From the NCBI GenBank assembly GCA_017451915.1, contig JAFTNJ010000031.1, positions 14,656 through 78,655 on the forward strand: a stretch of 64,000 bases of DNA, written 5' to 3'. Shown here piece after piece: positions 1 to 34,388 of the stretch. Origin of the DNA: Clostridia bacterium. Its GTDB lineage: Bacteria; Bacillota; Clostridia; Oscillospirales; CAG-272. The notes under the pieces are model-generated. The model made no database searches, was not told the origin of the DNA, and saw only the letters and a list, made by a program, of their open reading frames with translations. Every line of letters starts with the position of its first letter. Position 1 is the stretch's first letter. A program made the position numbers and the translations under genes.

Positions 1-395
1 ATCTGGAGATCCCCACTCACTACTACATGGATGGCGGCAAGACCGGTTCCTACACCGAGCTCTTCCGCAACCTGACCTATACCTTTGAGGTTGCCGAGAC
101 CGGTTGGTACGATATCTGCATTGATATGCGTATGAAGGCCGAGGGCACCAAGGAGACCAACTCCCGTAGCGCAATGATGATGATCGACTGGATGGGCGGC
201 GCGGATGCGTACTACCTGCACTTTGATATCGAGGGCGCAGGTGCTGTTAAGAACGCATCGGCAGGCTCTTATATGACCGGACTTTCGGTATACCTGGAGG
301 CCGGCGAGCACACCATTACCTTTGCGTGTGATTCCCGCATGGGCGGTAACTTCCACCTGCGTAACATCTACCTGGCAAAGGTTGTTGAGGAATAA
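1..395 (+). CDS. 3' end of a large secreted protein whose 5' end lies outside the window. The C-terminal ~120 aa form a CBM-like domain paralogous to the C-terminus of 979..4518.
   Basis: The frame is open from nt 3 with no upstream stop. It shares motifs with the 979..4518 C-terminus (F.V.E.GWYD, YL..G..T.T, H.R.IY..K). A terminator follows. Confidence 0.7.
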   Translation, partial: LEIPTHYYMDGGKTGSYTELFRNLTYTFEVAETGWYDICIDMRMKAEGTKETNSRSAMMMIDWMGGADAYYLHFDIEGAGAVKNASAGSYMTGLSVYLEAGEHTITFACDSRMGGNFHLRNIYLAKVVEE

Positions 396-406
396 AACAA
401 ATTTTT

Positions 407-438
407 GGGCGGTGTCCTTGGGGCACCGCCCTTTTTTG
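407..438 (+). terminator. Rho-independent terminator
   Basis: GGGCGGTGTCC/GGGCACCGCCC hairpin followed by a T6 run. Confidence 0.8.
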
Positions 439-789
439 TCCCTCGGTGTCGCTTTGCCCAAAAAAAAGGTTTGTTTTTGTGCATTGTTCACAAAACGAAA
501 CTCTTGTTTTTGATGAGGGTGTCAAAATAAAACAAATTAGGTTTATTTTGTGATACTTTGGTGTTGAAATTTGATAGTTATTTATTGGGATTTTGTATAT
601 AATATTGATATCTAACGGTTGCGATTTTTGGCGCGTTTTTGCACGTTTTTTGTTCCCCCCAAGCTTTTTTGGATAGGACCTGCGAGATTGTTGGGCTCGA
701 AGGTAGATGCAAAAGAGCAAAACGGAAAACGGGCAGAGCGGCAGGATCAAAACCGCTTGGAAAGCCAAGTAAGAAAGGAGTTGTAGTGC

Positions 790-936
790 TTGAGAAAAAC
801 TTACGAAGCACCCCTTTGCCAGCGGATCGAGGTATCCGAGGAAGACATTTTGACGGAATCCGACGGTTTTATCGGATTTGACAAAAACGACGATACCCCC
901 GGCAACTTTGAGGGTGGCGGGGTCATTCACTGGTAA
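790..936 (+). CDS. Unannotated small ORF of 48 aa with a TTG start: MRKTYEAPLCQRIEVSEEDILTESDGFIGFDKNDDTPGNFEGGGVIHW. Possible RiPP (lasso-like) precursor.
   Basis: AAGGAG at 775-780 lies 9 nt upstream of the TTG. There is an in-frame TAG at 784. Third codon positions are G/C-rich as in the real genes here. The ORF ends 43 nt before the GLUG gene and is below the ORF-track size cut-off. Confidence 0.45.
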   Translation: MRKTYEAPLCQRIEVSEEDILTESDGFIGFDKNDDTPGNFEGGGVIHW

Positions 937-978: not shown

Positions 979-3900
979 ATGAAGAAACTGACAACAATTA
1001 TTCTCCTGTTTGCAATGGTTCTTTCCATGCTGGTACCCGTTGGCGCGGCTGAAGGCGCAAAGCTGGTAATGAGCGGAAACAATATTGCAAACGCACAGAG
1101 CGTCGCAGCTGGCGTGATCGGCACCGTTGGAGCCGTTGGCGCGGGCGCGGATGAGACCCAGTTCGGAACAGCATTGGGAACCGGTGCTTTAAAGTACGAT
1201 TCCTCTAAGGGTCCGGATAAGAAATTCTGGGAAGATATCCGTAAGACCGATGCTACCGAGATCCACATTACCACTGCCGAGCAGTTGTTTGGTTGGGTAA
1301 AGTACAGAGTTGCTGACTATACCGCAAACGGTAAAGATGGTTTGGACACGTTTGAAGGCGTTACCATTTACTTGGATGTTGACGTGGATTTGAACGGCGC
1401 CACCTGGGATGCCATCCACGGCGATATCATCTTCAAGGGTAACTTTAACGGTCAGGGCCACGTGGTTTCCAACTACAAAATGACTGTTGGTAGCTGGAAT
1501 AAGGGCTTCTTTGGTCGTGTTGGTGGAAATGCTACCATTCAAAATCTTTCCCTTATTAACGTGACCTATAATTTTGCTCGTAAAGATAAAAACAACTTGA
1601 ACAATCTTGGTATCCTCGTATCCACGGCTGAGCCTGGTACAGGTAACACTCTTACCATCAAAAACGTATATGTGAACGGTGTTATGACGCTGACCAATGA
1701 TGGCGTAAATAAAGATAATGCCAATCATGGTATCGGCGGTATTATTGGTATTGTAAGCAACGGTACCGTAGTGATGGAGAACTGTAAGTTCGTGGGTACC
1801 ATCTCTGATACAGCCAACACCAAGGGTGCTGTTGCACAGAAAACCGGTGGTTTGATTGGCACTGTATCTAATCCCGCTGTGGTTAATTTGACTAATTGTG
1901 AAGTGGATGCCACTATTAATGCAGGTGGCACGAGAATCGGCGGTTTGATTGGAAATCTGGATACCGAAAAATCCGTGACGATTGCAGATTGTTTGGTTTC
2001 GGGTAATATCCAAAGCAGAATCACGGCTGATAGTGCCTTTGTTGGCGGTCTTATCGGCGATGCTTCTTCGACTAAGTGTTCCCATAATGTAACCAATACT
2101 AAAGTGAAAGCAGAGATTCAAACTGCAGAAAAATCCACCTATGCGGGCGGATTCTTTGGTCAGTTGAGAGCTAAAGATGCAACCATTGATAAATGTACCT
2201 TTGAAGGCACTGTGAGAACTTGGACTCGTTGTGGTGGCTTTAGTGGTTATCTTCAGGGAACCGGTAAGTTCACTATTTCGAACTCTTCCGTTAACGCTGT
2301 ACTTAAAACAGGTCAAGGCCTTGTTGGTGGTATTGCCGGAAACGTAAATAGTAGCTATGCAGACATTGAGATTACTAATTGTTCCGTAGCCGGCGAGATT
2401 CAAGCTCCCACCGACGGTGCAGGCGGCGGCTATGCAGCTGGCGGTATTCTTTGTAGAATCTATAATACCTCCTCCAAGCCGATCGACGTTAAAATTGCTA
2501 ATTGTTCCGTATCTATGGACATTAATGCCGACGCAGAGCCCGGTGGCGGTATCATTGGTATTGTTCGTACTGATGCTTCTGTTATCGTAAATGATTTGAC
2601 TGTTGAAAATTGTGAGTATACCGGTACCTTGAAGTCTAAAAATAAGGCAGCAGGTATGATTGGTACTGTTGGTAATTTGACCGGTGATTTCACTCTTCGT
2701 GGTTGTTCCTTTGAAGGAGTTGTTGATACTACCGGTGCTTATGGCGCAGGTTTGATTGGTCAATTGGATGGCACTGTTGCCGGAGATTTGATTATTGATG
2801 ATTGCTCCGTAGCAGGAACTATTGAATGTAAAGGAAGTGCAGGCGGCTTGATTGGTGCTGTTGTAAAGAAAATTACCGGCACTACCACCGTTGATAACTG
2901 TGAAGTAAGCGCAACAATCATCTCCACCGGCCCTCACAATGGCGGATTCTTTGGTAATGTTGGTGGTTCTACCAACGGCTCCGGCCTTACTACCGTTACC
3001 AATTGCGAATTTACCGGATATATCAAGGGTACCTCTAACACCGGTGCTTTCTATGGCTTTATTTCCGGTTCTTCCAAGAACGATTACGTATTTAAGAACT
3101 GCGTTTCTTCCGGTACTGTGGAAGGACTTCGCGGCTCCGGTGGATTCCTGGGTTACTTCTCTTGTGATAATGTTACTCTGGAGAACATTCAGGTAACGGG
3201 TAATCTGAATCTGAGAGCGGATGATAGTGCAAACGCAGGAAACAATAGCGTTGGTGGCGTGGTTGGCCGCTTTGCAGGTCTCACCCATGCAACCTTGAAG
3301 GACGTTGTATTTAGCGGTACATTGAACGCGACGGTTGCTCCTGTCGGCTCGGCTGCAACCAATGCAGCACACGTTGGTGGCTTGATTGGTTACGTTGCAG
3401 CAGCTTCCTCGGTTGTAGAACTGGAGGATTGTCACGTAAATGCAGCTCTCCACTTTGCAGAGGATGGCAAGTATGCCTTTGTTAACAATCAGGGCATGGC
3501 GATCTTTATTGGCGGTGCAGCTGAGAGTTCTTCTGCAAGAGTAAACGTAATTTACGGTCAGAACGTAAACTACAACCTCAAGGCTCTGTCCAATGCAACC
3601 GGTCACGATGTAAAACTGGTTGGCGATTCCGTTCCCTCCATGGGTAACACCGCGGTTCTGGGCTACCAGATCAAGTGGAACGAGGATGATACCTACGATC
3701 TCCGCTACATCATTGGTATGAAGGACGTTTATGATAGCATCGGCGTTATGGCTGAGATCCGTTACAACTACGGTGAAGGCGTAAACGTTCGCTACGAGAA
3801 TGTTCAGGTTGAGAACGTTTACAAGGAAGTGGCTGACGGCGAATCCAACACCTACCGTGCTGCTGACTTCGCTATGGATTACCTCTACACTCTGACCATC

Positions 3901-4518
3901 ACCAACATTCCCAAGGAATATGCAGTATATGCAGGTGATCTTCAGGTATCCCTCATTCCTTACGGCGTAAGCAATAAGGTTACCGAGTTTGGTGTTACTA
4001 CCGTTCAGGGTGACATGGGCGGCTTTGTTGAGCTGGAAGACTCCGACTTTGGTAAGACCAAGCCCGAGGCTATTGATGATGCACAGATCCACATCTGGGC
4101 AGGCGATTACAACGTTGAAGAAACCGTTAAGCCCGCAACTGCTACCGCAACCGAGGTTTCCGGCGGTAAGAACGTTCGTCACTGGTACACCAACGCCAAC
4201 ACGGTTCTGGTTTACAACTTTACCGTTGAGGAAGAGGGCTGGTACGATGCTTACTTCTATCTGAGACTGAAGAACGAGTCTGTTCGTTCCAACCAGATCG
4301 TAATCAGCAACGGTGACACCACCGACATTTTCACCTTCTTCTACGTTGCCACCAGCACCCACACCGCTCTGAAGGATAGCACCAACGGTACTTACCTCTC
4401 CGAGGCATTTGAGATCTATCTCACTCCCGGTGATTACACCATGACCATCCTTCCCGGTTGGACCGGCGGCTCCAGCTCCGGATCTCTCCACTACAGAGAT
4501 ATCTACTTTGTAAAGTAA
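979..4518 (+). CDS. Giant secreted GLUG-repeat (beta-helix type) protein with a signal peptide and a C-terminal CBM-like domain
   Basis: The N-terminus MKKLTTIILLFAMVLSMLVPVGAAEG is a signal peptide. About 18 repeats are centred on GG[LIF][IF]G (GGLIG, GGIIG, GGFFG), each preceded by a [ND]C.[VF].G motif. No LPXTG or SLH anchor was seen. Confidence 0.8.
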   Translation: MKKLTTIILLFAMVLSMLVPVGAAEGAKLVMSGNNIANAQSVAAGVIGTVGAVGAGADETQFGTALGTGALKYDSSKGPDKKFWEDIRKTDATEIHITTAEQLFGWVKYRVADYTANGKDGLDTFEGVTIYLDVDVDLNGATWDAIHGDIIFKGNFNGQGHVVSNYKMTVGSWNKGFFGRVGGNATIQNLSLINVTYNFARKDKNNLNNLGILVSTAEPGTGNTLTIKNVYVNGVMTLTNDGVNKDNANHGIGGIIGIVSNGTVVMENCKFVGTISDTANTKGAVAQKTGGLIGTVSNPAVVNLTNCEVDATINAGGTRIGGLIGNLDTEKSVTIADCLVSGNIQSRITADSAFVGGLIGDASSTKCSHNVTNTKVKAEIQTAEKSTYAGGFFGQLRAKDATIDKCTFEGTVRTWTRCGGFSGYLQGTGKFTISNSSVNAVLKTGQGLVGGIAGNVNSSYADIEITNCSVAGEIQAPTDGAGGGYAAGGILCRIYNTSSKPIDVKIANCSVSMDINADAEPGGGIIGIVRTDASVIVNDLTVENCEYTGTLKSKNKAAGMIGTVGNLTGDFTLRGCSFEGVVDTTGAYGAGLIGQLDGTVAGDLIIDDCSVAGTIECKGSAGGLIGAVVKKITGTTTVDNCEVSATIISTGPHNGGFFGNVGGSTNGSGLTTVTNCEFTGYIKGTSNTGAFYGFISGSSKNDYVFKNCVSSGTVEGLRGSGGFLGYFSCDNVTLENIQVTGNLNLRADDSANAGNNSVGGVVGRFAGLTHATLKDVVFSGTLNATVAPVGSAATNAAHVGGLIGYVAAASSVVELEDCHVNAALHFAEDGKYAFVNNQGMAIFIGGAAESSSARVNVIYGQNVNYNLKALSNATGHDVKLVGDSVPSMGNTAVLGYQIKWNEDDTYDLRYIIGMKDVYDSIGVMAEIRYNYGEGVNVRYENVQVENVYKEVADGESNTYRAADFAMDYLYTLTITNIPKEYAVYAGDLQVSLIPYGVSNKVTEFGVTTVQGDMGGFVELEDSDFGKTKPEAIDDAQIHIWAGDYNVEETVKPATATATEVSGGKNVRHWYTNANTVLVYNFTVEEEGWYDAYFYLRLKNESVRSNQIVISNGDTTDIFTFFYVATSTHTALKDSTNGTYLSEAFEIYLTPGDYTMTILPGWTGGSSSGSLHYRDIYFVK

Positions 4519-4548: not shown

Positions 4549-4585
4549 GGGGGCGGCGCGTGGCGCCGCCCCCGATGTTTTTATT
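4549..4585 (+). terminator. Rho-independent terminator
   Basis: GGGGGCGGCGC/GGCGCCGCCCCC hairpin followed by a T-run. Confidence 0.8.
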
Positions 4586-4611: not shown

Positions 4612-4653
4612 AACCGCCCTCTCTGTGGCGTGCACGGAGAGGGCGGTTTTTCT
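4612..4653 (-). terminator. Terminator of the ABC operon, possibly bidirectional
   Basis: AACCGCCCTCTC/GAGAGGGCGGTT hairpin lying 16 nt past the stop at 4669. Confidence 0.6.
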
Positions 4654-4668: not shown

Positions 4669-6561
4669 TTAGATCTTGCCCTCTTGGAGCTGTTGCTTAT
4701 GGTACTGCAGGGTATAGAGCTGATAATAACGGCCTCTCTGCTGCAGGAGCTCCTGGTGGGTGCCCTGCTCCAGGATCCTTCCGTGGGAGAGGAGGATGAT
4801 ATTATCCGCGTGCTGAATGGTGGAGAGTCGGTGGGCAACCATAAGCATGGTGCCAATGTTCATCATCTTCTCCAGGGAGTCCTGAATGAGGATCTCGGTT
4901 TCGGTATCAATGTTTGCGGTGGCCTCGTCCAGGATCATCACCGAGGGCTTGTGGATGATGGTTCGTGCAAAGGAGAGGAGCTGACGCTGGCCTGCGGAGA
5001 AGTTGTTTCCGCGCTCGCGCACCACCTCGTCCAAGCCGCCGTCCAGCTTATTGATAAAGGAGTCGGCGTTAACGTAGCGGCAGGCCTCCATAATCTCCTT
5101 GTCGGAGATTCCCTCCTCCCGGAGGATGATGTTGGAGCGGATGGTTCCCGAGAAGAGGAACACGTCCTGGAGCATCTGACCAAAGTGGCGGCGCAGGGAA
5201 GAGATCTTGATCTTCTTAATGTCAATTCCGTCAATGAGGATCTGTCCCTTTTGAATATCGTAATTTCGGCAGATCAGGGAGAGGATGGTGGATTTTCCCG
5301 AGCCGGTGGCACCAACAAAGGCAACTGTCTCCTTGGGGGATACGTGGAAGGAAACGTCCTTGAGCACCCATTCGTCGGGGATGTAAGAGAACCACACGTT
5401 CTTGAACTCGATCTCGCCCTGGATCTCATCCAATTCCATCGCGTCGGGCTCGTCCACCACGGCGGGCTCCATATCAAACACGGTAAAGATCTTTTCGGCC
5501 GAGGCAAAGGCAGATTGGAGCCAGTTGAACTGCTCGGCAAGGCTTTGAATGGGGTTAAAGAACTTGGAAATGTACATATAGAAGGTGACCACGGTTCCGC
5601 TGGTGAGCACCTGTCCCATAAACTCGGTGTTCCGGATGTAGCCGCGACCTCCCAGATAGAGCAGGCAGAGCACCGAGGAGATATAGAGCATATACACCAC
5701 GGGGCGGAAGATGCCAAACACAAAGATCTGATCGCGCTTGGCCTTTCCCAGGGCGTTGCACTTCTCGCTAAACTCCTTCATCTTCTGCTCCTCGCGGTTA
5801 AAGATCTGGGTGATCTTAATGCCCGAGAGGTTTTCGGAAAGATAGGTGTTGATGTCGGTGGTGCCGTCCTTGACTTTGCGGTAGGCCTTGCGGGAGAACT
5901 TACGGAAGATGATGGTAAAGAGGATGATGAAGGGAACAAAGCAGAGCACCATCAAGGTGAGCTCGTAGTTCAAGCAGAACATGGCGATCAGAACGCCAAT
6001 GATCACAAAGCAGTTCTTGATCAGGTTGACCAGGATATTGGTGAACATCATGGAGATGGCGTTGGTATCGTTGGTCACACGGGTCACCAGCTTACCTACG
6101 GGGATCTGGTTGAGCTGCTCGTGGGAGAGGGACTCGATGTGGGTAAAGAGATCCAGGCGCATCTGGGATAGGATCTGCTGACCGGTCTTTTGCAGCACGA
6201 TGGCCTGGACGTAGGTGCAGATCAGAGAGAGGATCAGCATCCCCGCGTACACGGCAACGGCAACGTACAGGCGGGAGAGGGGGAAGTCGGACTTCACGGT
6301 CTCCTCGATGTAGCCAACGATCAAGGGGGACACGATATCGTAAGCAATGGAGGCCAGCATGATCACGCCGATAAAGGCGAAGCGCGTCCAGTAGGGCTTG
6401 AGATACTTCAGCAGTCGCCGTACGATCTCGCCGTCCTTCATATTGCGGTCAAAGCCAATGGCTTCCTTTTTGTTTTTCATCATGGCGTAGGCCAGGATAA
6501 AGCAGGTGGAAAGCAGTCCAACAACGGCTCCCACAATGAGCAACGGGTAAAATTCACGCAT
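4669..6561 (-). CDS. ABC exporter half-transporter (TMD-NBD), the subunit carrying the consensus ATPase site
   Basis: Walker A GATGSGKST, Walker B VMILDEATANID and signature FSAGQRQ. I place the start at ATG 6561 (MREFYPLL), which has a GGAGG RBS. It overlaps the upstream gene by 8 nt (ATGCGTGA). Confidence 0.85.
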   Translation of the reverse strand: MREFYPLLIVGAVVGLLSTCFILAYAMMKNKKEAIGFDRNMKDGEIVRRLLKYLKPYWTRFAFIGVIMLASIAYDIVSPLIVGYIEETVKSDFPLSRLYVAVAVYAGMLILSLICTYVQAIVLQKTGQQILSQMRLDLFTHIESLSHEQLNQIPVGKLVTRVTNDTNAISMMFTNILVNLIKNCFVIIGVLIAMFCLNYELTLMVLCFVPFIILFTIIFRKFSRKAYRKVKDGTTDINTYLSENLSGIKITQIFNREEQKMKEFSEKCNALGKAKRDQIFVFGIFRPVVYMLYISSVLCLLYLGGRGYIRNTEFMGQVLTSGTVVTFYMYISKFFNPIQSLAEQFNWLQSAFASAEKIFTVFDMEPAVVDEPDAMELDEIQGEIEFKNVWFSYIPDEWVLKDVSFHVSPKETVAFVGATGSGKSTILSLICRNYDIQKGQILIDGIDIKKIKISSLRRHFGQMLQDVFLFSGTIRSNIILREEGISDKEIMEACRYVNADSFINKLDGGLDEVVRERGNNFSAGQRQLLSFARTIIHKPSVMILDEATANIDTETEILIQDSLEKMMNIGTMLMVAHRLSTIQHADNIILLSHGRILEQGTHQELLQQRGRYYQLYTLQYHKQQLQEGKI

Positions 6562-8335
6562 TGTTATCTTCGCCTCCTTCGTCTTCCAGCTTTTGAAGAT
6601 CGACCATGCGACGGTAATCGAGGCAGGTTTCGTAGAGATGCTCATGAGTACCAACGGCAAGGAGCTTGCCATCGTCGATAAAGAGGATCTTGTCCATGCG
6701 TTCAATGGTAGAAACGCGGTGAGCAATCAGGATGGTGGTGCGTCCCTTGCGGGTGTTGCGGAGGTTTTCCAGGATCACCTTTTCGGTCTTGGTATCTACG
6801 GCCGATACCGAGTCGTCCAGGATCAGAATGGGGGCATCCTTCATCAAGGCGCGGGCAATGGAAATTCGTTGCTTTTGTCCGCCCGAGACGGTCACGCCAC
6901 GCTCGCCCAGCACGGTTTGGTAGCCTTCCTTAAACTCGGCAATGTTTCCGTGGACGTCGGCCAAGCGTGCAGAAGCCTCCACGGCGGCGGGGTCCGTTCT
7001 TCCGGAAAAGGCGATGTTGTTTTCAATGGTATCGCTGAACAAAAAGTTGTCCTGCGGAACGTAGGCCGAGGCCTCACGCACCTGGCGGATGGGAATGGTA
7101 TTGACGTCATATCCGTCAATAAAGATCGTACCGTCGGGAACGTTGTAGGTGCGCAGGATCAGATCCACCAGCGTGGTCTTTCCCGCACCGGTTTTTCCAA
7201 CCAGTCCCACGTTCTCTCCGGCCTCAATGGTAAAGGAGATGTGGGAGAGGGCGTCGTATTCGCCGTCGGGGTAGCGGAAGGTCAGATCGCGGAACTCGAT
7301 TCTCCCCTTCAGCTCGTTTGCGGGACGGACGTCGGGACGGTCAACCACGTCCTGCTCGGCGTCCAGAAGCTCGCTGATACGCTTGAGAGAGGCCTTGCCG
7401 CGGGAGGACATTTCAATGAGCTCCGAAACCGCCATGGCAGGCCAGATTACGGTGTTGAAGTAGCCGATGAACTCCACCAGCTGACCGGCGTTGAAATCGC
7501 CTCGCCAAACCAGGTAGCCGCCGTAGCCCAGGATCACACAAATGACCGATTCCACAAAGAGGGTAACGCAAATACGCATCAGCACCGAGATCTTGGTGTA
7601 GTCCACGTTGGCCTTTTCGTTTTGCTGATTCAGCTTTTTAAAGGCCAAGAGCTCCTTGGTTTCCTTTACAAAGGCTTTGATCACGGCAATGCCCGAGAAA
7701 CTTTCCTGGGAGAAATCCGAGAGATCCGAGAAGGCCGCCTGGCGAACATCCCACTTGCGCATCATGTGTTTTCCCACAACGATGGAGGCCACCAGAAGAC
7801 AGGCGATGGGGATCAGGGAAAGTCCCGTGAGCATGGCGTCCATTTTGAACATTTTAAACAGAGCCATGCCGCCAAGAAAGACGGCGTCGCAGAGCATCAA
7901 AATGCCCGAGCCAAAGCATTCCTGCACGGTATCCAGGTCATTGGTGTACAGAGACATGAGGTTACCAACCTTGTTGACCTGATAATACTGGCGGGAGAGA
8001 TCCTTGCTGTGGTTGAACATTCGGTTCCGCAGATCGGTCTCCACCTTGATGGCCGAGCCGAAAAAGCAGATTCGCCATAGAAAGCGTCCCACTACCAGGA
8101 TCAAGATAATAAAGATCATGGGGCGGCAGATGTGATCCAGAAGAAAATCCATATCAAACACGTACCATTGCCCGTCAGAGAAAACCATGCCGTCATTCAT
8201 CCCGTTGATGACCATTTGATACAGGTTCGGGATGGTGAGCTGGGCGTAGTCCACCAGGATCAACGCAACCAACCCCAAGAACAGTACGCCCGCATAGCGC
8301 AGGTAGTACCGATTCAGGTGTTTTCCAAATAGCAT
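6554..8335 (-). CDS. ABC exporter half-transporter (TMD-NBD), the subunit carrying the degenerate ATPase site
   Basis: Walker A GKTGAGKTT. Walker B is ILILDDSVSAVD, with Asp in place of the catalytic Glu. The signature is VSGGQKQR. An AGGAGGG RBS precedes the start. Confidence 0.85.
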   Translation of the reverse strand: MLFGKHLNRYYLRYAGVLFLGLVALILVDYAQLTIPNLYQMVINGMNDGMVFSDGQWYVFDMDFLLDHICRPMIFIILILVVGRFLWRICFFGSAIKVETDLRNRMFNHSKDLSRQYYQVNKVGNLMSLYTNDLDTVQECFGSGILMLCDAVFLGGMALFKMFKMDAMLTGLSLIPIACLLVASIVVGKHMMRKWDVRQAAFSDLSDFSQESFSGIAVIKAFVKETKELLAFKKLNQQNEKANVDYTKISVLMRICVTLFVESVICVILGYGGYLVWRGDFNAGQLVEFIGYFNTVIWPAMAVSELIEMSSRGKASLKRISELLDAEQDVVDRPDVRPANELKGRIEFRDLTFRYPDGEYDALSHISFTIEAGENVGLVGKTGAGKTTLVDLILRTYNVPDGTIFIDGYDVNTIPIRQVREASAYVPQDNFLFSDTIENNIAFSGRTDPAAVEASARLADVHGNIAEFKEGYQTVLGERGVTVSGGQKQRISIARALMKDAPILILDDSVSAVDTKTEKVILENLRNTRKGRTTILIAHRVSTIERMDKILFIDDGKLLAVGTHEHLYETCLDYRRMVDLQKLEDEGGEDNNA

Positions 8336-8468: not shown

Positions 8469-9674
8469 TCAGGAATTGGGCTTGGCGGGGAATTGCAGAT
8501 CGGTCAGGATCGGGCAGTGATCGGAGGTGTAGATGGTCTTTTGAGTCCCGTCCACGGCGGTGATGGTGGCCTTGCCCGAGCAGGTGCGGTAGACCGCCAC
8601 GGTAAAGCCTTCCTTGGAAATGAAGATGTAGTCCAGCTTGTTGCCCCGCTTGGTTTCGTTGGGAGAGGGATAGTTGTCCCCTTGGGCGGCATCCTCAAAG
8701 GCCAGGTTCATGGAGCTCTGGGTGTAGCCAAAGCTCTTTTTGGCAACCAGGGAGGTATCGGTGTAGCTCTTTAAAACCTCTTTGTGAATATCCGAGTCGG
8801 GAATATCGTTGAAGTCTCCCGAGATCGTAACCAGCAGATCCTCGTAGTTGGACTCGATGATCGCGATCTGCTTTTGGATCAGGTGGAACTGCTTGATGCG
8901 CTCCAGGTTCCGCAGCTGTGTAAATGCCTTGGTGGCGTAGTCGGCGTTGGGGCTTCGATGCTGCAGGTGGGTATTGACGTAGAGCACGGGCTGTCCCTCA
9001 ATCTCAAATACGGCGTAGGTCATGCGACGCTTGTTGAGATACTGATAGCCGCCAGAGGACTGGAGTACACCGTCATCGTCGATGTAATTGCGACGGGTGG
9101 AGGTGAGAACCGTGTTTTGCATGGCGGAGGTCAACTGGAGTTGGGTCAGATATTCGGCCGAGAGCTGATAGGCGCCGTTTTCCTCAAACAGATCCCGGAT
9201 GGTCAGTGCCGCGCCGGGCTCTCCGGAGTCGGTGAGCCAAAAGCTACCGCTTTCCAGGAGCTTCATGTCGCTCTTATACCAAATGGAGCAGTTTTCGCCG
9301 GAGGCAATGGTGTTATCATAGAGAACGGTGTAGCCGTGCTCCTCAAGATCCAGTACGTCGATCCATGCGGGGGCATCCTCCTGCAGACCGAGTACGTCGG
9401 GATTGTGATTCAGGATCTCTTGGCGAATGGCGATGATGCGGTTTTTCGTTGCGTCGGTCAGGCTTCCGTCGCCGTTTTTCGCCATGGTGCCCCAGATATT
9501 AAAGCTCATTACGCGCAGGGTCGCGGTGGTGGGCTCCTCGGGGGTAGGATCGGCCGTGGTTTGCGCGGCCACTGTCGTACTGTTGGCAGGTGGGACGGGG
9601 GAGGGGGTGCAGGCGGTCAGCGCGGAGCACAGTAAGCATCCGCCAAGGAGGAGCGCGAGAAGTTTCTTCAGCAT
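8469..9674 (-). CDS. Endonuclease/exonuclease/phosphatase (EEP) family lipoprotein
   Basis: MLKKLLALLLGGCLLCSALTAC is a lipobox-type signal. EEP motifs are present: RVMSFNIWG, DVLGLQE, SDHCPI. The start is trimmed to ATG 9674. Confidence 0.8.
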   Translation of the reverse strand: MLKKLLALLLGGCLLCSALTACTPSPVPPANSTTVAAQTTADPTPEEPTTATLRVMSFNIWGTMAKNGDGSLTDATKNRIIAIRQEILNHNPDVLGLQEDAPAWIDVLDLEEHGYTVLYDNTIASGENCSIWYKSDMKLLESGSFWLTDSGEPGAALTIRDLFEENGAYQLSAEYLTQLQLTSAMQNTVLTSTRRNYIDDDGVLQSSGGYQYLNKRRMTYAVFEIEGQPVLYVNTHLQHRSPNADYATKAFTQLRNLERIKQFHLIQKQIAIIESNYEDLLVTISGDFNDIPDSDIHKEVLKSYTDTSLVAKKSFGYTQSSMNLAFEDAAQGDNYPSPNETKRGNKLDYIFISKEGFTVAVYRTCSGKATITAVDGTQKTIYTSDHCPILTDLQFPAKPNS

Positions 9675-9881: not shown

Positions 9882-9915
9882 AAACGGGATCGGATGTGTG
9901 GAAAGGAGGAAGCAT

Positions 9916-10620
9916 ATGTTTATTATTCGTTTGGCAGGCGTTCGGATCCGCGTGGAGAATCGCTATTCCTTTTTGGAGCGTCAATGCCGCGAGTATGTTT
10001 GCTCGGGTGAGGAGTACGATTTTTCGGTGTCGGTTACCGGCGACGAGATCCTGGAGGAGCAAAAGCACGGCGAGTTTTCGGAAGGGTATTGCGAGAGCAT
10101 TTGTATGTATCGGAATATTTGTGAGAAGATCGCCGCGTACAATATCTTTCTTCTACATTCCTCCGTGCTGGAGGTGGACGGCCGTGCCTATGCCTTTGCC
10201 GCGCGGAGCGGCGTGGGCAAATCCACCCATACCGCCCTTTGGCTCAAGAACATTCCCGGAGCACGGGTGCTCAATGGAGACAAGCCCTTGTACCGTCTGG
10301 AGGCGGACGGCAGCTTTACGGTGCACGGCACCCCCTGGAACGGCAAAGAGGATTGGGGCATGAACCTTTCGGCCCCTGTGGCGGGCATCTGCTTTTTGGA
10401 GCGGGGAGAGAAGAACGCCATTCGTCCCGCCACGCCCGAGGAAACCCTGAACCGCCTGATGCACCAGCTCTATTTGCGCGGCGGACGGGCATCGGTTAAT
10501 CAACGCTTGATCATGATGAACGCCATGCTGGAGAGCCTGCCCTTTTACGTGCTGTCCTGCACCATTTCGGACGAGGCGGCTCATCTTGCGTATAACACCA
10601 TGCGCTTACAATCGAATTAA
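9916..10620 (+). CDS. P-loop protein resembling the HPr-kinase-related kinases that accompany PqqD-type RREs
   Basis: The P-loop is ARSGVGKSTH. An AAGGAGGA RBS precedes ATG 9916. It is the first gene of a tightly packed operon with the PqqD-like gene. Confidence 0.45.
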   Translation: MFIIRLAGVRIRVENRYSFLERQCREYVCSGEEYDFSVSVTGDEILEEQKHGEFSEGYCESICMYRNICEKIAAYNIFLLHSSVLEVDGRAYAFAARSGVGKSTHTALWLKNIPGARVLNGDKPLYRLEADGSFTVHGTPWNGKEDWGMNLSAPVAGICFLERGEKNAIRPATPEETLNRLMHQLYLRGGRASVNQRLIMMNAMLESLPFYVLSCTISDEAAHLAYNTMRLQSN

Positions 10621-10635
10621 AAGGAGGATACGATC

Positions 10636-10902
10636 ATGAGAATCAATCCGGATTTTACTATTCAAAAGGTGGGAGCGTCCTACTTGGCGGTTCCCGTTGG
10701 AGAGACCAGCAAGCAGTTTCACGGAATGATCCGTTTGAATGAAACGGGTGCCTTTCTTTGGAATCAAATGACCGAGAAGGACTGCACCGAGGCCGATCTG
10801 GTAGAGGCACTGTTGCAGGAATACGAGGTTGAGCCGGCCGTTGCCAAGACCGACGTTCACCGTGTGGTAGAGCTGCTGAAGGAGCATCACTGCCTGGTAT
10901 GA
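10636..10902 (+). CDS. PqqD-family protein (RiPP recognition element / peptide chaperone)
   Basis: 88 aa with a typical PqqD pattern (LNETGAFLWNQM...EADLVEALLQEYEV...AKTDVHRVVELLKEH). An AAGGAGG RBS precedes it. Confidence 0.8.
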   Translation: MRINPDFTIQKVGASYLAVPVGETSKQFHGMIRLNETGAFLWNQMTEKDCTEADLVEALLQEYEVEPAVAKTDVHRVVELLKEHHCLV

Positions 10903-11345
10903 GCATCAGTATTGAGGAGCAGCTGCGGCAGGAAGGGGTCTATGTGAGTACCACGTCGGGGGTGAGTATGTGGCCCATGCTCCGCAACCGACGGGATCGG
11001 GTGATCCTGCGTGCCAAGGGGGAGGAACGGCTCAAGCGTTGGGATCTGCCCCTGTACCGGTATCCCGACGGTCGCTACGTGCTGCATCGCGTGATTGCCG
11101 TAAAGGACGGCTACTACGTGATCCGCGGGGACAATACCTATTCCAAGGAGAAGATCCCCGAGGAGTGGATTTTAGGCGTGGTGACCGAGTTTTATCGTGG
11201 GGAGAGGCACGTGATGGCCAATGCCCGCGGGTATCGCTTTTATGCCGCCCTGTGGCAGAGCATCTACCCGTTGCGCTATCCCTTGCATATGGCCAGATGT
11301 CTGGCATCCCGGATCAAGCACCGCTTGTGGAAAAAGAAGAAATAA
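10899..11345 (+). CDS. S24/S26-family (signal-peptidase/LexA-like) serine peptidase. It is a soluble form with His at the general-base position.
   Basis: GVSMWPML Ser motif, YVLHRVIAV, and an RGDN box. No N-terminal TM segment is present. Its start overlaps the PqqD stop by ATGA. Confidence 0.7.
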   Translation: MSISIEEQLRQEGVYVSTTSGVSMWPMLRNRRDRVILRAKGEERLKRWDLPLYRYPDGRYVLHRVIAVKDGYYVIRGDNTYSKEKIPEEWILGVVTEFYRGERHVMANARGYRFYAALWQSIYPLRYPLHMARCLASRIKHRLWKKKK

Positions 11346-12017: not shown

Positions 12018-12728
12018 TTATTTGAAATAATAGAGAAAGCTCATATCGCACGCGGCGTATTCCTCGGGGGTCAGCCATTTGTCATTGGAATCGTCAAAAT
12101 CTTTTTCGGCTTCGTTGTAATAGGACACCGAGTAGCAGTAGAGATTGGTTTCGGAGTAGAAGGTGATGGAGGCGCGGGTTTCGGGAACCAGGGCTCCGTC
12201 CTCGGTCCAGAGATACTTGGTGGTGGTATCGGTGGTAATGGTGGCGGCCTGAACGTCGGCGTACTCCTTGTCCTGCTGGAAGCTGTGGGTAAAGGCAAAC
12301 ACGGCCTTCAGCTTTTCGTCGGTTTGAATATTGCACAGCCCCGTAAGAGCCTTCGATGCCACGTAGTCACCGCTTTCGGGATCCTTGAGCCAACAGAGAT
12401 AGGAGCGACAGTCACCGGCAACGCCGTCCACGATCATCACGTCCAGATGTCCGTCAAAGTTTAGATCCAATACCTGAAGCCCGTAGGTGCCTCGCAGACT
12501 TCCCACCTTGCGGTCCACGCGGACCGTCGTGGTCCAGAGCAGGGCATCGCCCTGCTTGATCACCAGCTGCTTGGCCCGTGTTCCCGAGCCGCGAACACAA
12601 TAGGTGACGCCGTCTACCTCCGTGGAGTAGAGCAGGTCGTGCCGCTCGCCGCCGCAGGAGGCGAGCAGGGGCAGGAGCAGGATGGCGGAGAGAAGAAACA
12701 AAAGGATTCGATATTTCATAACTTCCAT
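12018..12728 (-). CDS. Hypothetical lipoprotein
   Basis: The signal peptide carries an LLASCGG lipobox. An alternative start is ATG 12719. Confidence 0.65.
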   Translation of the reverse strand: MEVMKYRILLFLLSAILLLPLLASCGGERHDLLYSTEVDGVTYCVRGSGTRAKQLVIKQGDALLWTTTVRVDRKVGSLRGTYGLQVLDLNFDGHLDVMIVDGVAGDCRSYLCWLKDPESGDYVASKALTGLCNIQTDEKLKAVFAFTHSFQQDKEYADVQAATITTDTTTKYLWTEDGALVPETRASITFYSETNLYCYSVSYYNEAEKDFDDSNDKWLTPEEYAACDMSFLYYFK

Positions 12729-32378: not shown

Positions 32379-34388
32379 ATGAAACGATTGCTTTGCCTTT
32401 TGCTTGCATTCAGCTTTTTGCTGACGATGCTGGTGGCTTGCGGCGGAACCACTCCCGGTGGGGAGGAGGGTGTAACCACCGAAGCCCCCGAGGTTCCCGA
32501 GACCCCCTTGGTCATTGCCGAGAACGGTGCTTCGGAGTTCCGTATCATCTACGACCGCTTGGAGGTTTTGGATGTTGCAACGCTGGAGTCCAAGATCAAG
32601 ACGATGGCCGATAAGATCGAGGAGAACACCGGTGCCAAGGTGAGCCGCGCCAGCACCAACGCCAATACCTACAGCAAGGAGAGCTTTGAGATCCTGGTTG
32701 GTACCACCGGCTACGAGGAAAGCATTGCTGCGGCCAAGGATCTTCGCCTGAAGGATTACAACGTGGTTCGTGACGGCAATAAGATCGTTATCGTTGGCGG
32801 CAGCGCAGACGCCCTGGTAACTGCCATAACCTGGTTCACCAATAAGGTGCTGGACGGCAAGGATGCCTCCACCACCGGTTCTATCGTGTTTACCCAGGAG
32901 CTTGAGCGGGCGTACCGCTTTGGCTACAAGGCCAACAGCCTGGTTGCCGCAGGCGCGGAGCTTAAGGATTTTACTATCGTATATCCCGAGGATTACACCG
33001 CCGCCGAGCATGAGACGGCGTATATCCTTTGTGACTATTTGCAGCAGTACTACGGTTACGTTCTTCCCGTAGCCTCCGACCGCAAGGATCACGATAAGGA
33101 GATCCTCATCGGTAAGACCGCACGTACCACCATTACCGCAGGAACCAACGAGTTCCGCGTAGAGGTTTCCGAGAACAAGGTACAGATCCTGGGCGGCAGC
33201 ACCGTTGCCTACGAGCAGATTCCCCAGTATTTCTACGAGCAGTTCATTCCCCTGGGCAAGGTTTCCAACACCACCCAGGATATGACCACGCTCCTGGAAG
33301 CGCGCAAGGACAGTATTCTCGGTACCACCGGCGATATTCGTATCATCTTCCATAACGTCTACGGCGGAACCACTCCCAGCGAGGGAATCTATACCAATCC
33401 GATTCTCCGTTGGAATCTGGACAGCAACCTGTACGAGGAATACATGGCAGACATTCTTTGCCTGCAGGAATTCAACAACGTCCCCAGAACCGGTGGAGAT
33501 TCCAGCCTTGCCTCCCGCCTGGCAGCCCTTGGCTATAAGGAGGTTCCCACCAACAAGTATGCGGTTAAGATCACCTATAAAAACGGCGATAAGACGCAGG
33601 GCATCAGCAACTTCTCGATTACCGAGGGAGGCGATCAGACCCCCAATACGCCCATTTTCTACAACCCCGAAAAGCTGGAGCTGTTGAACTACGGTGATTA
33701 CGTTTATACCTCCGGCTTGACCGATGCCGAGATCAACTCTCTGTACTCGGTGTACAAGCACAAGCTGGGCACCCGTTACGATAACCCCGCAATCCCCTCC
33801 AGCGCATCCCAGCAGTACTGGGATTACGAGCGCTACAACGATAATATTCGCTACGGCGGCCTTTCCAAGACTACCGTATGGGCCATCTTCAAGGACAAGA
33901 CCACCGGTAAGGTCTTTGCCGTTGCTTCCGTGCATCTGGATCACCAGGACACCTGCTACTCCAACGAACGCCGTGCAAAGCAGGCCATGGAGCTGATGAA
34001 CGAGATCAACACCAAGATCCTGGTTGGCGAGTATGTCAACATTCCCGTGATCTTTGGCGGTGATATCAATACCTGCTACAACCGTGAGGACGGCAAGTAC
34101 AAGAGCACCGGTGCCATTACCAACTTTGAGGCGGCCGGCTACGCCGATGTTCAGACCACGTTTGCCGGCGCCGATCAGGCAAGCTCCTACGGCGGATATG
34201 CAAACTTTGACAGAGATAAGAACTACTTCACCTCCATCGGCTCGAACAGCGGCGACGCCAGCGATTCCATCGACCATTGCCTCTACAAGGGTTCCATTGA
34301 GCCCACCCTGTTCGACGTTGTGGACCACATCTACGGAAGAAGAACCTCCGACCACCTGCCTCTGGTAGTGGATTTCGCGTTCAAGTAA
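32379..34388 (+). CDS. EEP-family lipoprotein with a ~300-aa N-terminal extension
   Basis: Lipobox LVACGG. The C-terminal half carries EEP motifs (IRIIFHNVYG, DILCLQEFN, SDHLPLVVDF). Confidence 0.75.
   Translation: MKRLLCLLLAFSFLLTMLVACGGTTPGGEEGVTTEAPEVPETPLVIAENGASEFRIIYDRLEVLDVATLESKIKTMADKIEENTGAKVSRASTNANTYSKESFEILVGTTGYEESIAAAKDLRLKDYNVVRDGNKIVIVGGSADALVTAITWFTNKVLDGKDASTTGSIVFTQELERAYRFGYKANSLVAAGAELKDFTIVYPEDYTAAEHETAYILCDYLQQYYGYVLPVASDRKDHDKEILIGKTARTTITAGTNEFRVEVSENKVQILGGSTVAYEQIPQYFYEQFIPLGKVSNTTQDMTTLLEARKDSILGTTGDIRIIFHNVYGGTTPSEGIYTNPILRWNLDSNLYEEYMADILCLQEFNNVPRTGGDSSLASRLAALGYKEVPTNKYAVKITYKNGDKTQGISNFSITEGGDQTPNTPIFYNPEKLELLNYGDYVYTSGLTDAEINSLYSVYKHKLGTRYDNPAIPSSASQQYWDYERYNDNIRYGGLSKTTVWAIFKDKTTGKVFAVASVHLDHQDTCYSNERRAKQAMELMNEINTKILVGEYVNIPVIFGGDINTCYNREDGKYKSTGAITNFEAAGYADVQTTFAGADQASSYGGYANFDRDKNYFTSIGSNSGDASDSIDHCLYKGSIEPTLFDVVDHIYGRRTSDHLPLVVDFAFK

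Follow-up and report, generated by a model that had tools for sequence, protein, structure and literature searches.

A conserved RiPP-like leader peptide encoded beside large exported proteins in Clostridia, for which a lasso identity is not supported

An ORF of 48 codons lies in a 64,000-nucleotide stretch of DNA from a Clostridia bacterium (assembly GCA_017451915.1, contig JAFTNJ010000031.1, positions 14,656 to 78,655 of the forward strand), the whole of which is called the window here. Is this ORF a real gene, and does it encode the precursor of a lasso peptide? The original prediction, made from the sequence alone, was that an unannotated frame starting at TTG-790 is laid out like a lasso precursor, with a YxxP leader motif of the type recognized by PqqD-type RREs, Thr22 as a possible conserved Thr(−2), and a core that begins with a small residue and has an Asp at ring-forming distance. 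It also held that the window encodes a PqqD RRE, an HPr-kinase-like protein, and an ABC exporter but neither an Asn-synthetase-like cyclase nor a transglutaminase-like B2 protease. The observation is confirmed by our analysis. The interpretation is only partly supported: the ORF is a genuine small gene whose N terminus is an RRE-type (YxxPxΦ) leader, but its assignment to the lasso peptides is not supported. The features of the locus are collected in the table.

Features of the peptide locus and of the downstream cassette genes (window coordinates)
Position	Strand	Feature	Basis
407..438	+	Intrinsic terminator of the upstream giant-protein gene (paralog A, whose gene ends at 395)	11-bp GC-rich stem followed by a T-run; places the small ORF in a transcription unit separate from the upstream gene
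564..603	+	Candidate promoter region (TTGAAA ... TGTATATAAT), inferred only	Read directly from the sequence; conserved in the ortholog; a consensus scan called no promoter between 440 and 790, the hexamer spacing here being non-canonical
610..789	+	Long 5' leader RNA, including a hairpin at 756-769 just before the ribosome-binding site	Conserved in the ortholog; MFE −59.6 kcal/mol, z-score −2.3; no Rfam family matched
775..780	+	Ribosome-binding site AAGGAG	9-nt spacer (TTGTAGTGC) before TTG-790; identical in the ortholog
790..936	+	48-codon peptide gene	TTG start, 48 codons plus TAA
790..861	+	Leader-like half (residues 1-24), M-R-K-x-Y5-E-x-P8-x-C10-Q ... E-D19-I-L21-T22-x-S24	Across 21 family members Y5, D19, and S24 are invariant and K3, P8, L21, and T22 are at least 90% conserved
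862..933	+	Conserved acidic, Gly-rich tail (residues 25-48) ending in G-x-[VI]-I-x-W-COOH; putative core	G38 and W48 at least 90% conserved across the family
979..4518	+	1179-aa exported GLUG/β-helix protein, co-transcribed 42 nt downstream of the peptide gene	Signal peptide read from the sequence; GLUG motif; no terminator between 936 and 979; terminators at 4549-4573 and 4612-4648
4669..6561	−	ABC exporter half-transporter with no C39 peptidase domain; candidate exporter (inferred)	ABC_membrane plus ABC_tran only; start placed by the 630-aa ortholog call
6554..8335	−	Second ABC exporter half-transporter; candidate exporter (inferred)	ABC_membrane plus ABC_tran only
9913..10620	+	ScmC-family, HPr-kinase-related P-loop protein	TIGR04249 ScmC (E 2e-5) and HprK_rel_A (E 7e-5), both below cutoff; ortholog precomputed as PF27840 ScmC; ApSGTGKSTH, N.DKP, and GTPw.GK motifs conserved across 54 homologs
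10636..10902	+	PqqD-type RRE	PF05402, E 2.5e-17; best PDB match the lasso B1 protein TfuB1 (6jx3_B, E 0.002)
10899..11345	+	Small S24/S26-clan serine peptidase with no N-terminal membrane segment; candidate leader peptidase	Invariant G-x-S-M, H-R, G-D-N, and E in 24 homologs, 6 of which hit PF00717; profile hits signal peptidase I 4nv4 (E 1e-4) and SEC11A; NCBIfam sod_Ni_protease and sigpep_I_arch at E about 1e-4

The translation of the ORF and its ribosome-binding site are as first described. G or C occupies the third position in 29 of 48 codons (0.60), not in 30 as first counted, and neighboring genes range from 0.48 to 0.76. Conservation of the frame in relatives, with its ratio of synonymous to non-synonymous change, had been proposed as the test of whether the ORF is a gene, and the frame passes it: an 83%-identical ortholog and a 59%-identical paralog were found, dN/dS is 0.12–0.30, and synonymous sites are saturated between the paralogs. 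Disruption of the frame in close relatives, or conservation of only the alternative GTG-786 frame, would have counted against the proposal; instead it is the GTG-786 frame that has a stop at codon 15 in the ortholog, and an antisense 204-aa ORF (316-930) is also broken there. A word-indexed protein search found only 6 close members, even when queried with the alignment, whereas an exhaustive HMM search of 1.84 billion representative proteins gave 25 hits at E<1e-3, about 22 of them peptides of 31–109 aa with the same layout. About 20 are further relatives of 40–60 aa, with the consensus MKKxYExPxCQ…EDILTxS…GxF..G.(V/I)IxW-COOH. The possibility that the ORF arose by chance, or that it is a regulatory upstream ORF whose translation rather than product controls the giant gene, draws on the TTG start, the long structured 5' leader RNA, the tight coupling to the downstream gene, and the fact that some gene callers skip it. 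This reading is effectively refuted by the amino acid–level conservation between the paralogs and by the conservation of both ends of the peptide, including the C-terminal Trp, in about 20 distant homologs; the paralog, moreover, uses ATG with a strong ribosome-binding site. An Rfam scan of positions 350–1050 returned only sub-threshold chance hits.

Is the peptide a lasso precursor? Several features point in that direction. The leader motif is of the YxxPxL type bound by B1 RREs, with C, F, or M at the second position after the Pro in this subfamily and M, L, I, or F in cassette relatives; T22 is conserved, S24 is an invariant small residue, and D/E follows 7–8 residues later in close relatives. 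A PqqD-like B1 RRE is encoded in the window, and HPrK-like and PF14907 tailoring genes are known from Firmicutes lasso clusters. A search of Pfam and NCBIfam models with the peptide and nine relatives found no family, the only trace being a faint match of the relatives' first 9–14 residues to NF033528 lasso_cyano (E 0.1). However, T22 lies 14 residues after P8, compared with about 10 in Firmicutes lasso leaders (PMC7533575, Table 3), a departure toward longer spacing that the original prediction had itself acknowledged, and in cassette relatives the Thr is replaceable while Ser24 is invariant; with no cleavage site known, these observations do not settle whether T22 is a Thr(−2). If S24 is taken as core residue 1, D/E falls at position 7–8 in close relatives, but the tails are about 25–35% acidic, so that an acidic residue at positions 7–9 is expected by chance, and if cleavage follows S24 the first residue is D, W, K, or Q in close relatives. 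These observations do not settle whether the core has the lasso form. The PqqD protein also scores far below the NCBIfam lasso_PqqD cutoffs (30 and 27.6 bits against 70 and 80).

The absence of any lasso cyclase in the genome, together with no detectable peptide, had been named in advance as evidence that would weigh against a lasso identity. No Asn-synthetase-like (PF00733-like) or transglutaminase-like gene was found among the about 35 window ORFs scanned with Pfam and NCBIfam, in agreement with the original prediction, nor does either appear among the gene clusters recurring in 5 or more of 61 related cassette loci; the rest of the genome was not examined. What was not noted originally is the S24/S26-type peptidase gene directly after PqqD, which in the related loci takes the place of a leader protease. 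We consider it very unlikely that the peptide is a lasso precursor, with Thr22 at position −2, a Ser24-to-Asp31 macrolactam, and with its cyclase and B2 protease encoded elsewhere in the genome. Double-glycine precursors offer no better identity, as the G-G of the peptide lies 4 residues from the C terminus rather than at the end of an N-terminal leader, and neither ABC protein has a C39 domain.

If the peptide is not a lasso precursor, what might recognize its leader? The same motif occurs on short acidic peptides upstream of a recurrent, unstudied cassette that encodes an ScmC/HPrK-like P-loop protein, a PqqD protein, an S24/S26 peptidase, an ABC exporter, and a PF14907 nucleotidyltransferase. 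In a Faecalibacterium prausnitzii locus, a peptide with the same N terminus lies 81 nt upstream of an ScmC-like gene (40% identical), followed by PqqD and the start of an S24/S26 gene. In an Eubacteriales MAG, the peptide lies 76 nt upstream of an ScmC-like gene (33% identical) followed by PqqD; no S24/S26 homolog was found next to it. In 80 metagenome loci found through the ScmC-like protein, leader hits number 38 upstream on the same strand, 1 downstream, and 2 on the opposite strand, over equal amounts of sequence, and 26 of 37 loci with at least 5 kb of upstream sequence carry one. Of 61 loci of at least 4 kb, 53 contain ScmC-like, 39 S24/S26-like, 35 PqqD, 31 ABC, and 30 PF14907 genes. 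A search of the literature found no paper on the ScmC/PqqD/S24-S26/PF14907 cassette.

The window ORF shares the leader of these cassette peptides, M-K-K-x-Y-E-x-P-x-Φ-[EQ]-x-[VI]-x-x-x-x-[ED]-D-[VI]-[ILV]-x-x-S, but not their typical spacing from the cassette genes. An HMM built only from cassette-adjacent leaders picks the window ORF as the best of 1571 window segments, although its own score is weak (E 0.035, next best 5); the same HMM scores the same-genome paralog at 8e-6 and another family peptide, P0007, at 1e-7. An iterated HMM gives 2.6e-8. These two peptides of the window genome are the only leader-motif ORFs found near its cassette, with no other hit in the 64-kb window. The first three cassette genes lie 9.0 kb downstream on the same strand, separated from the peptide gene by three opposite-strand genes, whereas the spacing typical of cassette peptides is 0.1–2.5 kb on the same strand, and the window lacks the PF14907 gene. 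The tail, too, differs from the short (8–25 aa), hypervariable acidic tails of cassette peptides: it is acidic but 24 aa long and conserved (F30, K32, N33, G38, G43, G44, I46, and W48 in close relatives; G38 and W48 family-wide).

The strongest regularity, which the original prediction missed, is the pairing with a large exported protein. In 9 of 9 contexts of this subfamily, a large exported protein gene lies 35–70 nt downstream; eight are clear β-helix homologs, and the ninth (L103/L104) shows only a weak match. In the wider family, 39 of 48 peptides start within 400 nt, and most 12–30 nt, after the stop of a large ORF, and most are followed by a signal-peptide or lipoprotein gene. In most cassette loci, too, the peptide gene abuts a gene for a large or exported protein. 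This pairing raises the alternative that the peptide is a dedicated partner of the giant protein, for example an assembly, folding, secretion, or regulatory factor, that the ScmC/PqqD/S24-S26 genes do not process, its leader-like N terminus reflecting shared ancestry with cassette peptides rather than current function. The downstream large gene is the only context feature conserved in 9 of 9 lineages, the peptide and giant genes were duplicated together as a unit, and the tail is conserved. For two other subfamily members, P0026 (on 314-kb and 72-kb contigs) and P0018, no ScmC, PqqD, S24/S26, or PF14907 gene lies within the sequence examined, ±10 kb for P0026 and 5–7-kb contigs for P0018, so that the pair can stand alone locally. 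On the other hand, the peptide has no signal peptide while its partner is Sec-exported or a lipoprotein, and the two would not meet without an exporter; the most conserved part of the peptide is the YxxP...DILTxS leader, which is statistically tied to PqqD cassettes, and the window genome has such a cassette. We regard this alternative as unlikely, although it is the most serious competitor. A toxin–immunity arrangement was also considered for large proteins followed 12–30 nt later by a small ORF, but twenty large proteins share one C-terminal domain yet have unrelated peptide tails, and the conserved part of the peptide is the leader.

The tail resembles a single FG-GAP/VCBS blade, which could favor a partnership with the giant. 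Pairwise hhalign of residues 18–46 against one repeat unit (DxL[ST]AS ... WFKNDGSGNF ... VI) gives a probability of 93% and E 3.3e-7. A single unit of about 30 residues cannot form a propeller alone, however, and Pfam FG-GAP models do not hit it, so that the similarity neither places the peptide among these repeats nor excludes it from them. We asked whether the peptide could serve as a spare blade for an incomplete propeller, and no FG-GAP-like or peptide-like repeat occurs in any associated giant.

The explanation that we consider somewhat more likely than not is that the ORF encodes a 48-aa cytoplasmic peptide, transcribed from its own promoter together with the downstream β-helix protein, whose lasso-type leader is most likely bound by the PqqD-family RRE encoded 9 kb away. 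The RRE would present the peptide to its two operon partners: the ScmC/HPr-kinase-like enzyme, which would perform an ATP-dependent modification, most plausibly phosphorylation at or near the invariant T22-x-S24, and the small soluble S24/S26-type peptidase, which would remove the leader. The acidic, Gly-rich tail of about 24 residues would then be exported, probably by the ABC exporters, and would act at the cell surface together with the large protein. Our data establish that the gene is real and under purifying selection, that its leader motif is shared with peptides flanking ScmC/PqqD/S24-S26 cassettes, that the pairing with a giant protein is conserved, and that a lasso cyclase and B2 were not found in the window or recurrently in related loci. 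Binding of the leader by the RRE, the kind and site of modification, the cleavage site, export of the product, and any interaction with the giant protein are inferences; there is no biochemical evidence for any step, and the ScmC family is uncharacterized. There is a parallel with known chemistry, as in Firmicutes lasso clusters an HPr-kinase homolog phosphorylates the precursor and a nucleotidyltransferase then glycosylates the phosphate (PMC8498205), but the known lasso-cluster kinases act on a C-terminal Ser, whereas this peptide ends in Trp. AF2 gave no usable model of the ScmC-like protein without an alignment (pLDDT 33) or of the peptide with 6 sequences (pLDDT 55), and no fold search was run. 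Sequence searches of solved structures found nothing for the ScmC-like profile or the giant protein, and a hit of the single S24/S26-like sequence to BLIP-II is a repeat artifact.

The system combines features of several others. With the paeninodin (PadeA/B1/B2/C/D/K) and pseudomycoidin (PsmK/PsmN) lasso clusters of Firmicutes it shares a short precursor starting M-K-K-x-[YW]-x-x-P-x-Φ, a stand-alone PqqD/B1 RRE, an HPr-kinase-related P-loop protein, an ABC exporter, and, in most cassette relatives, a PF14907-type nucleotidyltransferase. It differs from them in having an S24/S26 serine peptidase and no cyclase or B2, a leader 4 residues longer between Pro and Thr, an invariant Ser at the junction, a C-terminal Trp, and genes embedded among those for large exported proteins. 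The pairing of an ScmC-like with a PqqD-like protein is that of the uncharacterized SynChlorMet (SCM) cassette and HprK-related kinase A systems (TIGR04248/TIGR04249/TIGR04352), and ScmC and HprK_rel_A are the best NCBIfam matches of the window protein, but far below the family cutoffs (24 against 125 bits). No radical SAM/SPASM partners are present, and the peptidase, the peptides, and the taxonomic range (gut and rumen Clostridia) all differ. The peptidase has the Ser (G-x-S-M-x-P), His-Arg, and G-D-N motifs of dedicated S26-type maturation peptidases (the Ni-SOD protease SodX and ER/archaeal-type SipW/Sec11), with weak family matches, and removal of an N-terminal extension from a specific substrate is its proposed role. 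Unlike these, it has no N-terminal membrane anchor, is only 148 aa long, and is encoded with an RRE, and its substrate is unproven.

More broadly, it is possible, although we hold this only tentatively, that the ORF and its relatives are substrates of a new, cyclase-less RiPP-like pathway widespread in gut and rumen Clostridia, in which a PqqD RRE reads a lasso-type leader, an ScmC/HPrK-like enzyme (plus a PF14907 transferase in most loci) modifies the peptide, a soluble S24/S26 peptidase trims it, and the exported product works together with the large surface proteins to whose genes it is translationally coupled. Such a peptide–surface protein partnership would have no described precedent. 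If this reading is right, a very common cassette, with more than 534 relatives in one metagenome scan and occurring in human-gut and rumen samples and in F. prausnitzii, has gone unrecognized as a peptide-maturation system. The system would reuse the lasso leader, the RRE, and the tailoring enzymes but not the lasso fold, and would add a RiPP-like class with a new leader-protease logic, S24/S26 in place of B2. The coupling to large exported or adhesin-like proteins points to a role in cell-surface biology rather than antibiosis.

The family also provides a concrete rule for annotating a set of 30–60 aa genes that gene callers now miss or replace with antisense artifacts. The description of the present ORF as unannotated is only partly true: the gene call of one assembly lists the 48-aa ORF, whereas three other assemblies of the same sequence call the antisense ORF instead.

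The original prediction of a translatable small ORF in this region holds. The ORF starts with TTG, ends with TAA, and translates to MRKTYEAPLCQRIEVSEEDILTESDGFIGFDKNDDTPGNFEGGGVIHW, and an AAGGAG motif lies nine bases before the start codon. One correction concerns codon usage, as GC3 is 29 of 48 rather than the predicted 30, a value that falls inside the range of neighboring genes, 0.48–0.76. An intrinsic terminator closes the upstream gene, whereas no terminator separates the ORF from the giant gene of 1179 codons that follows it, and two terminators lie beyond that gene. The small ORF and the giant gene therefore form one transcription unit behind a 5′ leader of about 180 nt. This leader RNA is largely conserved in the ortholog described below and has a predicted long-range fold (z-score −2.3), with a CTTGG-AAAG-CCAAG hairpin six bases before the RBS. 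No Rfam family matched it.

Positions of the features considered here, in the window unless another sequence is named (L004, an assembly of this same sequence; L050, L055, and L100, metagenome cassette loci)
Sequence	Positions	Strand	Feature
Window	3–395		last 130 codons of the paralogous 1066–1068-aa giant protein
Window	407–431		intrinsic terminator of the upstream gene
Window	610–789		5′ leader RNA
Window	756–769		hairpin in the 5′ leader RNA
Window	775–780		AAGGAG
Window	790–936	plus	small ORF
Window	841–927		residues 18–46 of the peptide, FG-GAP/VCBS-like region
Window	316–930	minus	antisense 204-aa ORF, annotation artifact
Window	979 (start)		1179-codon giant gene
Window	4549–4573		terminator after the giant gene
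Window	4612–4648		terminator after the giant gene
Window	8469–9665	minus	lipoprotein-type endonuclease/exonuclease/phosphatase (PF03372) gene
Window	9913–10620		ScmC-like gene
Window	12018–12728	minus	lipoprotein with an XAC2610-related domain
Window	32379–34388	plus	lipoprotein-type endonuclease/exonuclease/phosphatase (PF03372) gene
L004	10001–13385		tandem paralogous cassette (46-aa peptide plus 1066-aa giant protein), just upstream of the window
L050	8682–11189		capsule or cell-wall glycopolymer genes directly following the cassette
L055	8090–8794		capsule or cell-wall glycopolymer genes directly following the cassette
L100	161–809	minus	two tandem leader-motif peptide genes

The window belongs to an 84-kb contig of a ruminant-gut 'Clostridia bacterium' MAG, and a related MAG carries a 47-aa ortholog of the peptide, 83% identical and in the same synteny. 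Both genomes also carry a 46-aa paralog (MKKQYESPV[FM]QTVWISDEDILT[TS]S...GDFEDGGVIQW; NCBI name, hypothetical protein IJX28_04535), which has an ATG start, a strong RBS, and a much shorter leader RNA. This paralog lies about 3.8 kb upstream and precedes a paralogous giant protein of 1066–1068 aa, and the window starts inside that giant gene. Across six close sequences, 21 columns are invariant. The balance of synonymous and nonsynonymous change, proposed in advance as a measure of whether the frame is real, gave Nei–Gojobori dN/dS values of 0.12–0.30, with synonymous sites saturated between the paralogs (pS of 0.63–0.79). Conservation of only the alternative GTG-786 frame would have counted against the ORF, but that frame hits a stop at codon 15 in the ortholog. 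The antisense ORF that gene callers annotate in place of the 48-aa gene in three assemblies of this same sequence (L005–L007) runs through a terminator and an AT-rich spacer and is also broken in the ortholog, and it is an annotation artifact.

A word-indexed protein search found only the six close members, whereas an exhaustive HMM search of 1.84 billion representative proteins gave 25 hits at E<1e-3, of which about 22 are peptides of 31–109 aa. In an alignment of 21 members, Y5, D19, and S24 are invariant, and K3, P8, L21, T22, G38, and the C-terminal W48 are at least 90% conserved. The consensus is MKKxYExPxCQxxxxxDEDILTxS....FxKN...GxFxxGxVIxW. No Pfam or NCBIfam model covers these peptides.

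To examine the N-terminal half, we scanned one genome per GTDB species with patterns from the conserved N terminus and found peptides that share only the first 24 residues or so. In Faecalibacterium prausnitzii UBA1082 (locus L015), MKKTYEAPVTEIVTFEAADVITTS... lies 81 nt upstream of an ScmC-like gene (40% identical to the window's ScmC-like gene), which is followed by a PqqD gene (32% identical) and by the start of a peptidase gene with a GDSMKP motif. In an Eubacteriales MAG (locus L014), MKKTYEAPVTKIVSLNDDILTEF... lies 17 nt after a 3325-aa ORF and 76 nt before an ScmC-like gene (33% identical) followed by PqqD, and no S24/S26 homolog was found next to it. A search of metagenome contigs with an ScmC-like alignment then returned more than 534 relatives, from which 80 loci were kept. 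Clustering of their ORFs gave a recurrent cassette composed of an ScmC-like P-loop protein (typically about 243 aa), PqqD (about 88 aa), an S24/S26-like peptidase (about 155 aa), an ABC exporter (about 566 aa), and a PF14907 'uncharacterised nucleotidyltransferase' (about 395 aa). The gene order of the cassette is flexible. In loci L026, L034, L039, L070, and L095, the S24/S26-like gene follows the ScmC-like gene directly with no PqqD homolog detected between them, whereas in L028, L053, and L057-type loci the peptidase gene lies upstream of ScmC.

A leader HMM found 38 small ORFs upstream of the ScmC-like gene on the same strand, compared with 1 downstream and 2 on the other strand over equal amounts of sequence. 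Of 37 loci with at least 5 kb of upstream sequence, 26 have such an ORF. Variants of the usual layout exist: L100 carries two tandem leader-motif peptide genes upstream of the ScmC-like gene but on the opposite strand, and L101 has its peptide downstream, next to a second S24/S26-like gene. The cassette-linked peptides read M-K-K-x-Y-E-x-P-E-Φ-E-[VI]-[VI]-x-F-E-x-E-D-V-I-x-T-S, followed by a short, hypervariable, acidic tail, and Y-x-x-P-x-Φ is the lasso leader motif (compare MKKDWTIPTLEVLDINMTMA|G..., PMC7533575). An HMM built only from the cassette-adjacent leaders ranks the small ORF first among 1571 window segments, although with a weak score (E 0.035; the next best is E 5). The same model scores the same-genome paralog at 8e-6 and P0007, another peptide of the subfamily that ends in Trp, at 1e-7. 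No other leader-motif ORF exists in the window.

The window encodes three enzyme-like proteins of this cassette. The PqqD protein matches PF05402 at E 2.5e-17, and its best solved relative is the lasso B1 protein TfuB1, but it scores well below the lasso_PqqD family cutoffs. The ScmC-like protein keeps a Walker A motif (ApSGTGKSTH) and two further invariant motifs across 54 homologs. It weakly matches ScmC and HprK-related kinase A, and its ortholog is precomputed as PF27840 ScmC. The third protein, 148 aa in length and encoded by a gene that overlaps the PqqD stop codon, has invariant G-x-S-M, H-R, G-D-N, and E residues. Six of 24 homologs hit Peptidase_S24, and the profile hits signal peptidase I and SEC11A. 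It has no N-terminal membrane segment, so it is probably cytoplasmic.

The original prediction interpreted the ORF, as a hypothesis, as a lasso-peptide precursor, and our analysis supports this interpretation only in part, in that the lasso-type leader is upheld but assignment to a lasso cluster is not. An Asn-synthetase-like cyclase and a transglutaminase-like B2, whose absence from the window the original prediction had already noted, were not found among about 35 window ORFs, and neither is among the genes recurring in 5 or more of the 61 cassette loci. The Pro-to-Thr spacing is 14, compared with about 10 in Firmicutes lasso leaders, the invariant junction residue is Ser, and the residue after Ser24 is D, W, K, or Q. 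In addition, the peptide ends in Trp, whereas the HPr-kinase homologs of lasso clusters act on a C-terminal Ser (PMC8498205). Four of the five cassette proteins do have counterparts in Firmicutes lasso clusters, namely B1, the D exporter, the K kinase, and the N nucleotidyltransferase. The system therefore looks like a relative of those clusters in which the cyclase and B2 are replaced by an S24/S26 peptidase. No curated family covers the peptides, and full-text literature searches found no paper on the cassette. RRE-dependent peptide maturation is itself already known, and the system is best placed there as a previously undescribed variant, with no product or function yet known for it.

We could inspect nine lineages of the W-ending subfamily: the window peptide, its paralog, and the peptides P0007, P0008, P0011, P0012, P0016, P0018, and P0026. 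In every one, the next gene, 35–70 nt downstream, encodes a signal-peptide protein or lipoprotein. In eight lineages that protein is homologous to the window's 1179-aa GLUG/β-helix protein, with E-values from 1e-19 to 4e-64, whereas in the P0012 lineage (loci L103/L104) only a weak match over the N-terminal region was seen. For P0026, on contigs of 314 and 72 kb, no cassette gene lies within 10 kb, and none was found on the 5–7-kb P0018 contigs either. These stand-alone loci, together with the conserved tail, keep alive the main rival explanation, in which this subfamily has become a cassette-independent partner of the giant protein.

A similar proximity to large proteins is seen among the cassette-linked peptides, of which 39 of 48 begin within 400 nt, and most 12–30 nt, after the stop codon of a large ORF. 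In 28 cases that ORF is at least 500 aa. Most of these peptides are followed by a lipoprotein gene, a signal-peptide gene, or ScmC itself. The large proteins are not all homologous to one another and include F5/8 type C plus InlB B-repeat proteins, BspA-type LRR proteins, and proteins with no Pfam match. In several metagenome loci, among them L050 and L055, the cassette is directly followed by capsule or cell-wall glycopolymer genes (LytR-CpsA-Psr, Wzz, a P-loop (AAA_31/ParA-type, CpsD-like) gene, and CpsB), and in F. prausnitzii L015 it is preceded by GT2 and epimerase genes, which hints at a link to the cell envelope.

Taken together, these data firmly establish that the ORF is a selected small protein gene, that it carries an RRE-type leader statistically tied to ScmC/PqqD/S24-S26 cassettes, that it forms a conserved two-gene unit with a giant exported protein, and that it fails the defining tests for a lasso cluster. 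The steps of maturation, in contrast, are our inference. In this view, the window's PqqD would bind the leader, the P-loop protein would modify the peptide, the S24/S26 peptidase would remove the leader, and the ABC exporters would release the tail, which would then act with the surface protein. Phosphorylation near T22-x-S24 is the most economical guess for the modification, given HPrK kinship and the precedent of lasso tailoring.

The region from EDILTxS to the tail, residues 18–46, aligns to a single FG-GAP/VCBS β-propeller repeat (DxL[ST]AS...WFKNDGSGNF...VI) of an unrelated 1138-aa protein, P0020, with hhalign probability 93% and E 3.3e-7, and the DKNDxTxGxF segment looks like the Ca-binding/FG part of such repeats. 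Pfam FG-GAP models do not hit the peptide, and none of the giants contains such repeats. We treat this alignment as a lead about the conformation of the tail, perhaps a Ca2+-binding hairpin, and not as family membership. A lipoprotein with an XAC2610-related domain (NF047539, E 2e-14) and a weak FG-GAP_3 match is encoded two genes after the ScmC/PqqD/peptidase trio, although whether it is linked to the FG-GAP-like tail is not known. Of the two PF03372 genes in the window, the first sits between the ABC exporters and the ScmC-like gene and is syntenic in the related MAG.
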